A stretch of DNA of 11,157 nucleotides from a virus (IMGVR_UViG_2703718825_000008), one strand, 5' to 3'; shown: positions 3,505-4,159, numbered from the stretch's first letter. A program made the numbers and translations. Notes: generated from the letters alone by a model not told the origin.

Positions 3505-3621
3505 CAGAATCCTTCCAGATAAATAGCACTCCCCTGTTCGGGGTCCATCCCTCTTCTCCCTGCGCGCTACTTAAGTATTTTTGATTCTATTCCGGCGCCG
3601 TCCGGAACTTCAAACGCGTTG

Positions 3622-3653
3622 AAAATAAAAACAAAAACCCGCCGAAGCGGGTT
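3622..3653 (-). terminator. Rho-independent terminator at the 3' end of the hok transcript
   Basis: 7-bp GC-rich stem 3636-3642/3647-3653 (aacccgc / gcgggtt) with loop cgaa, followed on the minus strand by TTTGTTTTTATTTT (complement of 3622-3635). Confidence 0.7.
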
Positions 3654-3721
3654 AAGTGCGGGTGCGTTGAGGATGCCTGACACATCAGAGGTGGCGAGGG
3701 ATTTCTCCCCCGCCTGGTCTC

Positions 3722-3877
3722 TTACTCCTCAGGTTCGTAAGCTGTGAAGACAGCGACCTCCGTCTGGCCGGTTCGGATTCGTACCTCGCAGAGGTCTTTC
3801 CTCGTTACCAGTGCCGTCACTATGACGGTTAAACAGATGACGATCAGGGCGATTAACATCGCCTTTTGCTGCTTCAT
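3722..3877 (-). CDS. hokD: Hok-family membrane toxin (type I toxin-antitoxin toxin), HokD/RelF-like
   Basis: 51-aa product MKQQKAMLIALIVICLTVIVTALVTRKDLCEVRIRTGQTEVAVFTAYEPEE, a single transmembrane helix plus conserved Hok tail. AAGGAG sits 9 nt upstream of the ATG at 3877. An in-frame ATG at 3934 would add 19 residues (mok-like position). Confidence 0.9.
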   Translation of the reverse strand: MKQQKAMLIALIVICLTVIVTALVTRKDLCEVRIRTGQTEVAVFTAYEPEE

Positions 3878-4159
3878 AGCCTGCTTCTCCTTGACCTTTC
3901 GGTCCGTAAGAGGCAATCTATATGTGACGAGCATATAGGGGCCTCACTTCGATTTATAGTCGGGTGGGGCTTTTATCTATCTGCCGTTGGTGTTCATGCC
4001 CGAGGCAGATAGCCTCAAGCACCCGCAGCAATCCTACTTAACTCTGCCGTTACAGCAAACCGTTTTCGCCCGATATGGGAATTCCCATATCGGAATGAAT
4101 TCAGTTCACCTGGCGAGGCTTAGCGTACAATTTTTTCCGTTTTGTGAGCTGCCCCTACA

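Follow-up and report, generated by a model that had tools for sequence, protein, structure and literature searches.

The window, a stretch of 11,157 nucleotides of viral DNA (IMGVR_UViG_2703718825_000008), very probably carries a complete canonical hok/mok/sok type I toxin-antitoxin cassette, self-contained within about 430 bp. This type of locus is already known, and the one described here is an ordinary full copy in a lambda-like prophage of Shiga-toxin E. coli. All of its sequence and structure elements are present, intact and conserved, and as far as can be read from the DNA there is no sign of silencing. Where its transcripts start, how the mRNA is trimmed at the 3' end, whether Sok is made, whether the locus is toxic in situ and what its biological role may be are given below as predictions.

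Toxin gene and the overlapping mok frame

The coding part of the cassette and its terminator are arranged as follows.

3722..3877 (-): hok toxin coding sequence, 51 aa, MKQQKAMLIALIVICLTVIVTALVTRKDLCEVRIRTGQTEVAVFTAYEPEE
3887..3892 (-): hok Shine-Dalgarno (SD) AAGGAG, read from the sequence and, in the predicted folds, base-paired to UCUU in the dcb region
3722..3934 (-): mok reading frame, 70 codons, in frame with hok and ending at the common stop
3942..3945 (-): mok SD GAGG, 7 nt 5' of the mok ATG, invariant in the alignment of relatives (A2)
3636..3653 (-): intrinsic terminator hairpin of the hok mRNA, from a terminator scan, G+C-rich and followed by TTTGTTTTTA, with the T-run reaching to about 3626

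The encoded protein is identical to K-12 HokD at 51 of 51 residues (tblastn E 3.6e-31) and matches the Pfam family HOK_GEF (PF01848) with 82.9 bits against a cutoff of 22, as a Hok/Gef-family membrane toxin of about 50 residues. RefSeq genomes with the identical region annotate the gene as hokD with a 51-aa product, and HokD has served as a known toxic control (bioRxiv 10.1101/2025.08.07.668861). The Tyr47 codon UAC (window 3737-3739) is followed by G, giving UACG inside CAGCUUACGAACCUG, and the window and K-12 hokD coding sequences are identical; UACG is the reported context of TadA A-to-I recoding (Tyr to Cys) in hok mRNAs, including that of hokD (bioRxiv 10.1101/2025.08.07.668861).

A preliminary description of this DNA had recognised a hok toxin near-identical to hokD with its own ribosome-binding site (3892..3887), a 3' terminator (hairpin 3653..3636 and T-run), an in-frame ATG 19 codons upstream at the mok position and a long leader with inverted repeats, and we found each of these to be real. 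The locus had been placed at 3600-4100; the functional unit is slightly narrower, at about 3626-4059 on the minus strand.

The mok ATG at 3934 lies 57 nt, or 19 codons, 5' of the hok ATG in the same frame and behind an SD of its own, which is the arrangement of the family and matches the geometry of mokC/hokC. The offset from mok to hok is 57 nt in 42 of 50 related leaders and 56 or 58 nt in the rest. The in-frame offset of 57 nt is found in the window, in hokC and in most phage loci; with 56 nt, as in some close relatives, the mok stop TGA overlaps the hok ATG; the out-of-frame 58-nt offset occurs in R1 and Rac-type loci.

We then considered whether the relevant product could be a 70-aa in-frame Mok-Hok fusion instead of the 51-aa Hok made through translational coupling. 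The common frame and stop codon would allow it, the in-frame offset is the one retained by most related leaders, and the 70-aa ORF is the annotated coding sequence in the PPompW records (213 nt, 'gef: phage maintenance protein'). Nevertheless, close relatives with the same toxin carry the 56-nt offset or, like R1, the out-of-frame 58-nt offset, residues 2-5 of Mok are hypervariable, hok has a strong SD of its own and the RefSeq product is the 51-aa protein, and we consider the fusion unlikely. From these comparisons, the peptide sequence of Mok seems to be unconstrained, and translation of mok would serve the production of the 51-aa Hok by coupling.

Leader structure and predicted folding of the hok mRNA

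The elements of the hok transcript and its promoter were located at the following positions.

4053..4059 (-): predicted -35 region of the hok promoter, TTTGCTG, read from the sequence
4031..4036 (-): putative -10 of the hok promoter, TAGGAT, separated by 6 nt from the predicted +1 at G4024, at a conserved position
3626..4024 (-): predicted full-length hok mRNA, about 397 nt
4013..4024 (-): tac (translational activator) element GGGUGCUUGAGG, nt 1-12 of the transcript, pairing with fbi or ucb
3960..3970 (-): ucb (anti-SD) box GCCCCACCCGA, which in the full-length fold pairs with the region of the mok SD
3910..3945 (-): Sok target hairpin, from the structure line of the Rfam alignment, comprising the mok SD and dcb (GCCUC 3914..3910)
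3660..3672 (-): fbi (fold-back inhibition) element CCUCAACGCACCC, nt 353-365 of the transcript, pairing with tac

The Rfam search for Sok and hok-leader elements that the preliminary description had proposed returned RF01794 at 4024..3875 on the hok-sense strand, with 103.9 bits (gathering score 59), an E value of 3e-23 and the full model 1-157 covered. The hok leader is thus a member of a structured-leader family, with 147 nt. In K-12 the same family matches the hokC-sense strand (L002 502..654, minus) and ends at the hok AUG, with the annotated sokC on the opposite strand (553..611, plus), so RF01794, named 'sok', is in effect a model of the hok leader and its match gives neither the strand nor the extent of Sok.

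A sigma-70 scan tool reported neither the hok nor the Sok promoter, and therefore both were assigned by homology and conservation. The -35 of hok can be read as TTGCTG with a 16-nt spacer or as TTTGCT with a 17-nt spacer, and most related cassettes have TTGCG, TTGCT or TTGGC equally far away, also those with another upstream context. At the -10 site nearly all relatives have TAGAAT and the others TAAAAT, TAAGAT, TACAAT, TATAAT or TATGAT, and the spacing to GGGTGC/GGCGC is exactly the same, also in cassettes that have lost upstream homology. From this TA..AT hexamer conserved 6 nt before GGGUGC, transcription is predicted to start near G4024 and to yield a transcript of about 397 nt; for its putative ends, assigned by homology, we used the beginning of the Rfam model together with the conserved -10 (5' end) and the terminator (3' end). 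The sole hit of the scan, TTGAAG-18-TAGAAT at 3613..3584 (-), is downstream of the cassette, between the hok terminator and rem, and may be a rem promoter.

The 397-nt transcript folds with a minimum free energy (MFE) of -166.3 kcal/mol (z -7.72 against shuffles), and the centroid structure is the same as the MFE structure. In this fold tac is paired with fbi, and ucb with the mok SD, using elements that were defined for R1 (PMC9841398). The tac/fbi helix, of 12 bp with one bulge, is found in both the MFE and the centroid fold and closes the full-length mRNA over a long range; its duplex energy of -21.1 kcal/mol compares with -12.7 +/- 2.1 for shuffled 3' UTRs and was reached by 0 of 1000 of them. 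An independent inverted-repeat search recovered the core of this helix as a perfect 9-nt repeat (3657-3665/4019-4027, 353 nt apart), and the inverted repeat within the leader (3966-3985/4004-4023) was confirmed. When the RNA is cut to about 350 nt, the predicted fold shifts tac to ucb and frees the mok SD, and the nascent first 100 nt alone are predicted to form a tac-proximal hairpin as a metastable structure, such that the closed, 3'-truncated and nascent pairings of the family are all obtained in silico. The Sok target hairpin has its inner stem around the mok AUG and a 7-nt loop, CUCGUCA. Another inverted repeat, 3931-3942/4151-4162, was examined as a decoy target or relic of a second leader and discarded as a chance match (score 22; shuffles 17.7 +/- 2.0, maximum 27).

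Conservation of the helices was measured over 49 distinct relatives, with helices slid along the alignment as controls.

tac/ucb helix: 99.7% paired, invariant
5' hairpin: 99.3% paired, two pairs changed on both sides
SD/dcb helix: 100% paired
ucb/SD helix: 99.5% paired, both-side changes at 4 of 9 pairs
hok-SD/dcb helix: 98.8% paired
slid control helices: 30-58% paired

The tac and fbi boxes are invariant within the hokD-type set, so that covariation between them is not measurable inside it; compensated differences were seen only against R1-type loci, which have GGCGCUU/AAGCGCC.

The predicted Sok antisense gene and the variation of its target

The antisense gene was placed on the plus strand through its homology to sokC.

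3926..3980 (+): predicted Sok antisense RNA, about 55 nt, obtained by projecting the annotated K-12 sokC (16952..17010) through alignment A1
3891..3919 (+): Sok promoter proposed for this allele, TTGACC (3891-3896), a 17-nt spacer and CAATCT (3914-3919)

The preliminary description had been unable to locate a Sok promoter with confidence; the homology to sokC supplies one. Its -10, CAATCT, ends 6 nt 5' of the predicted Sok start at 3926, and the sokC promoter, TTGACC-17-CACTCT, stands at the same distance from the annotated 5' end of sokC. The site is weak, since CAATCT agrees with TATAAT only at positions 2 and 6, and this explains why both the first reading and the scan tool missed it. Relatives have TAACCT, TAATCT, TATCCT or TACTCT at this site. 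In the window and in sokC the first T of the hexamer is absent and one additional base is found in the spacer hairpin, which restores the 17-nt spacing and gives a better -35. In its computed fold (-21.4 kcal/mol, z -4.66), the predicted Sok RNA has a single-stranded tail of 9 nt at the 5' end, followed by a long hairpin and a U-rich tail. At the level of sequence, then, a cis-encoded antisense gene with promoter and terminator covers the mok start.

In the prophage locus hokW-sokW of Sp5, replacement of TAACCT(A) of sokW, the homologue of the window's Sok -10, gave a 'promoter-less' construct without antitoxin activity (PMC8621323; primers YO-421/422). In K-12, CRISPRi knock-down of sokC is strongly deleterious (bioRxiv 10.1101/2020.03.04.975888), and as sokC has the same promoter architecture, promoters of this type can be functional. 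Expression of an unstable Sok and repression of hok by it, 3' processing of the hok mRNA and killing by Hok once Sok decays have been shown for hokW-sokW (PMC8621323) and for R1 (PMC9841398).

By homology to these two systems, the weak hok promoter (-10 TAGGAT) would give a stable mRNA of about 397 nt in which tac, at the 5' end, is clamped to the 3' fbi and the mok SD is sequestered by ucb, such that both ribosomes and Sok are excluded. Slow trimming of the 3' end would remove fbi, and tac would then pair again with ucb while the mok SD enters the SD/dcb target hairpin. The short-lived Sok, of about 55 nt from the plus strand, would use its 5' tail to pair with the start region of mok, blocking the translation of mok and hence the coupled translation of hok, and the duplex would be marked for cleavage. 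Once Sok transcription stops, upon loss or induction of the prophage or shut-off of host transcription, Hok would be made and would depolarise the inner membrane.

The segment recognised by Sok is the variable part of the cassette. Among 78 loci with an identical HokD we found 17 variants of the segment of about 20 nt that comprises mok codons 1-5 and the loop, and the target hairpin was retained in all 17 (-9.6 to -15.5 kcal/mol). The mean pairwise differences along the cassette were the following.

hok coding sequence: 0.6%
mok SD: 0.6%
tac and 5' hairpin: 4.9%
dcb to the hok start: 4.1%
between mok SD and dcb (Sok target): 28%

Measured separately on a 19-column slice, the difference was 34.5% for the Sok target against 8.3% for the rest of the leader, and the hypervariable residues 2-5 of Mok fall in this segment. 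Of two pairs of contigs from the same genome, one has different variants (L045, L062) and the other has identical ones. Among the matches listed from a search of species-representative genome contigs for the pattern GCTTGAGGCTNTCTG, almost all were chance matches in unrelated phyla. The alignments suggest that variation in the target reflects diversification of antisense specificity. We propose only tentatively, and with more doubt than confidence, that the variants form specificity groups in which co-resident prophages each control their own copy with no cross-repression, the window allele (CUCGUCA) being one with a compensated Sok promoter.

The weakness of both -10 sites, CAATCT for Sok and TAGGAT for hok, and the silence of the scan tool on both promoters could also indicate a silent or decaying remnant, in which Sok, hok or both are not meaningfully expressed and neither regulation nor killing takes place. 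In earlier work, as summarised in a preprint, the chromosomal loci hokA, hokB and hokC reportedly show no post-segregational killing and do not respond to rifampicin (bioRxiv 10.1101/2025.08.07.668861), so an intact sequence is no guarantee of activity. However, we found a disabling change in none of the elements, the toxin is identical to the toxic HokD, close relatives retain all helices with compensatory changes and the target hairpin survives the 17 sequence variants. Furthermore, sokC, whose -10 is equally weak, has a strong knock-down phenotype, and hokW-sokW is active. On this balance we regard a remnant as quite improbable, and continue with the reading of a complete, regulated cassette.

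Relatives, the K-12 hokD arrangement and the prophage setting

The closest relative tested is hokW-sokW of Sakai prophage 5 (Sp5), the Stx2 phage of E. coli O157:H7, which is likewise a hok/mok/sok cassette of a lambdoid prophage. It is an experimentally proven type I toxin-antitoxin system with sokW as the antitoxin, and HokW is produced upon mitomycin C induction and doubles phage release (PMC8621323). The first 49 nt of the hokW mRNA, including tac, and also fbi are identical to those of the window, mok is an in-frame 70-codon frame in both, and the Sok promoter overlies dcb and the hok SD in the same layout. The HokW encoded by Stx2 converting phage I agrees with the window Hok at 47 of 51 residues and differs towards the C terminus, where the window has VFTAYEPEE and HokW has VFVDYESEK, within the last 7 residues. 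By comparison with hokW, the window has a middle leader hairpin shorter by 21 nt, about 9 of 19 aligned positions changed in the Sok-target segment, and a different terminator and different flanking genes. The Sok promoter has TTGACC and CAATCT in the window but TTGCCT and TAACCT in sokW. The target variant of three of the related loci (L012, L013 and L040) matches the hokW segment.

The closest annotated leader is that of K-12 hokC/mokC/sokC (gef), with 109 of 151 aligned columns identical, an in-frame mok in the same geometry and the promoter architecture TTGACC-17-CA(N)TCT in common; the annotated Sok coordinates transfer directly. Unlike the window cassette, hokC belongs to the core chromosome and not to a prophage, its Hok sequence is different, and IS186 is found 20 nt past its stop codon, removing the 3' fbi region. 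The R1 plasmid hok/sok (parB) shares tac/fbi, ucb, dcb, mok, Sok and the predicted folding pathway with the window. It differs in being plasmid-borne, with a proven role in post-segregational killing, in its Hok (about 44% identical, the figure reported for HokW against Hok), in its out-of-frame mok (58-nt offset) and in the stronger Sok -10, TATCCT.

The K-12 hokD (relF, the third gene of relBEF in the cryptic prophage Qin) encodes the same protein and occupies the same position relative to rem/ydfU/Q and dicF, but it has no hok promoter, tac, ucb, mok, Sok target or Sok gene, and relB-relE stand there instead. It is co-transcribed with relBE from the relBE promoter as relBEF (PMC3598666). 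The homology of the window to Qin is near identity from the hok SD through the coding sequence, 3' UTR and terminator into rem, and ends at 3891, 14 nt 5' of the hok ATG; beyond this point the K-12 sequence is the 3' end of relE. In the window, tblastn with K-12 RelE gave only 10-residue matches at E > 1, tblastn with RelB gave no match at E up to 10, and the identical RefSeq region has no relBE annotation, in agreement with the earlier statement that relBE is absent; the K-12-type arrangement, with relB-relE directly upstream of a hokD without its own leader, is thus not that of the window. Since K-12 hokD has homology only from 14 nt upstream of the gene and no RF01794 leader match, it appears to be a truncated derivative, and from these alignments the relBE-hokD arrangement of K-12 is best explained as a truncated form of the complete cassette.

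The preliminary description had taken the stand-alone state without relBE as unusual, a view that the relatives reverse. Of 80 IMG/VR contigs with an identical HokD, 77 have the full leader, two have relE upstream and one has another replacement. In a search of 5,426 complete E. coli genomes, at least 80% of the 551-bp query was matched at one place in 1,987, which count as carriers of a leader-bearing locus; 608 carry this exact leader type and 1,173 have the K-12 relE-hokD junction. Some genomes have both forms: the E2865 chromosome (NZ_AP018808.1) carries a cassette identical to the window at 1751020-1751570 and a K-12-type relE-hokD junction at 2157798-2157982. The leader-less hokD of E2865 has no Sok target, so a Sok of the window type could not repress it. 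By these sequence comparisons, the leader-bearing state without relBE is the norm for prophage hokD.

The borders of the cassette by homology recur in many contexts, with the start at about 4036-4072 and the end at 3627, and the identical toxin is found behind many unrelated upstream genes, which points to a discrete, portable cassette. The hok genes show an enrichment among prophages (bioRxiv 10.1101/2025.08.07.668861). By sequence, the window belongs to a Qin-like, PPompW-type lambdoid prophage. Many Shiga-toxin E. coli (STEC) chromosomes (O26, O111, O103, O145 and others) and the 'Enterobacteria phage PPompW' records match the 551 bp around the locus with 100% identity, and the genes are arranged as dicB/DicF - cI/cro-like - replication genes - paa - hok - rem - DUF968 (ydfU) - rusA - Q - tRNAs. 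The cassette lies between paa and the rem/nin/Q region, with rem at 3504..3244.

4213-4971 (-): paa, encoding the AcfC-family adhesin Paa (Pfam SBP_bac_11) and followed by a terminator-like hairpin at 4193-4206 that belongs to it

The virulence-associated paa thus adjoins the toxin-antitoxin cassette between the replication and nin regions. As paa is directly upstream on the same strand, the toxin might be an unregulated passenger, read through from paa as K-12 hokD is from relBE (PMC3598666) and free of antisense control; yet a terminator-like hairpin follows paa (4206..4193), the cassette has its own conserved promoter and a full leader with a Sok gene, and the same cassette is found behind many unrelated genes, so this is very unlikely indeed.

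Other features of the prophage came to our attention. A perfect 24-bp palindrome, CCGATATGGGAATTCCCATATCGG, is located just 5' of the hok -35 (window 4070-4093), has no T-run after it on either strand, and is also present ahead of some hok cassettes in other contexts. The DicF sRNA gene at 10939-10990 (+) gave a full-length Rfam match of 76.7 bits and is unannotated in the identical RefSeq region, where dicB is listed just downstream. Downstream of Q, at 351-591 (-), are three tandem tRNA genes, assigned by ARAGORN as Arg-UCU, Lys-UUU and Met/Ile-CAU; of these, Rfam recovers just the outer pair at the gathering threshold, RefSeq (O26 genome) lists only Arg and Ile, and the middle gene may be atypical.

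The complete hok/mok/sok cassette corrects an expectation centred on K-12, as the full, self-regulated form is the usual one for prophage hokD. Public annotations give the toxin coding sequence only, or the 70-codon fusion as 'gef' in phage records, and leave out the Sok gene; as the Rfam 'sok' family matches the hok-sense strand, its strand-naive use mislabels the antitoxin. Candidate roles for the cassette are assistance to lysis at induction, as for hokW, retention of the prophage and abortive infection. Given that hokW-sokW influences phage release, the window allele could affect the induction dynamics of STEC prophages.
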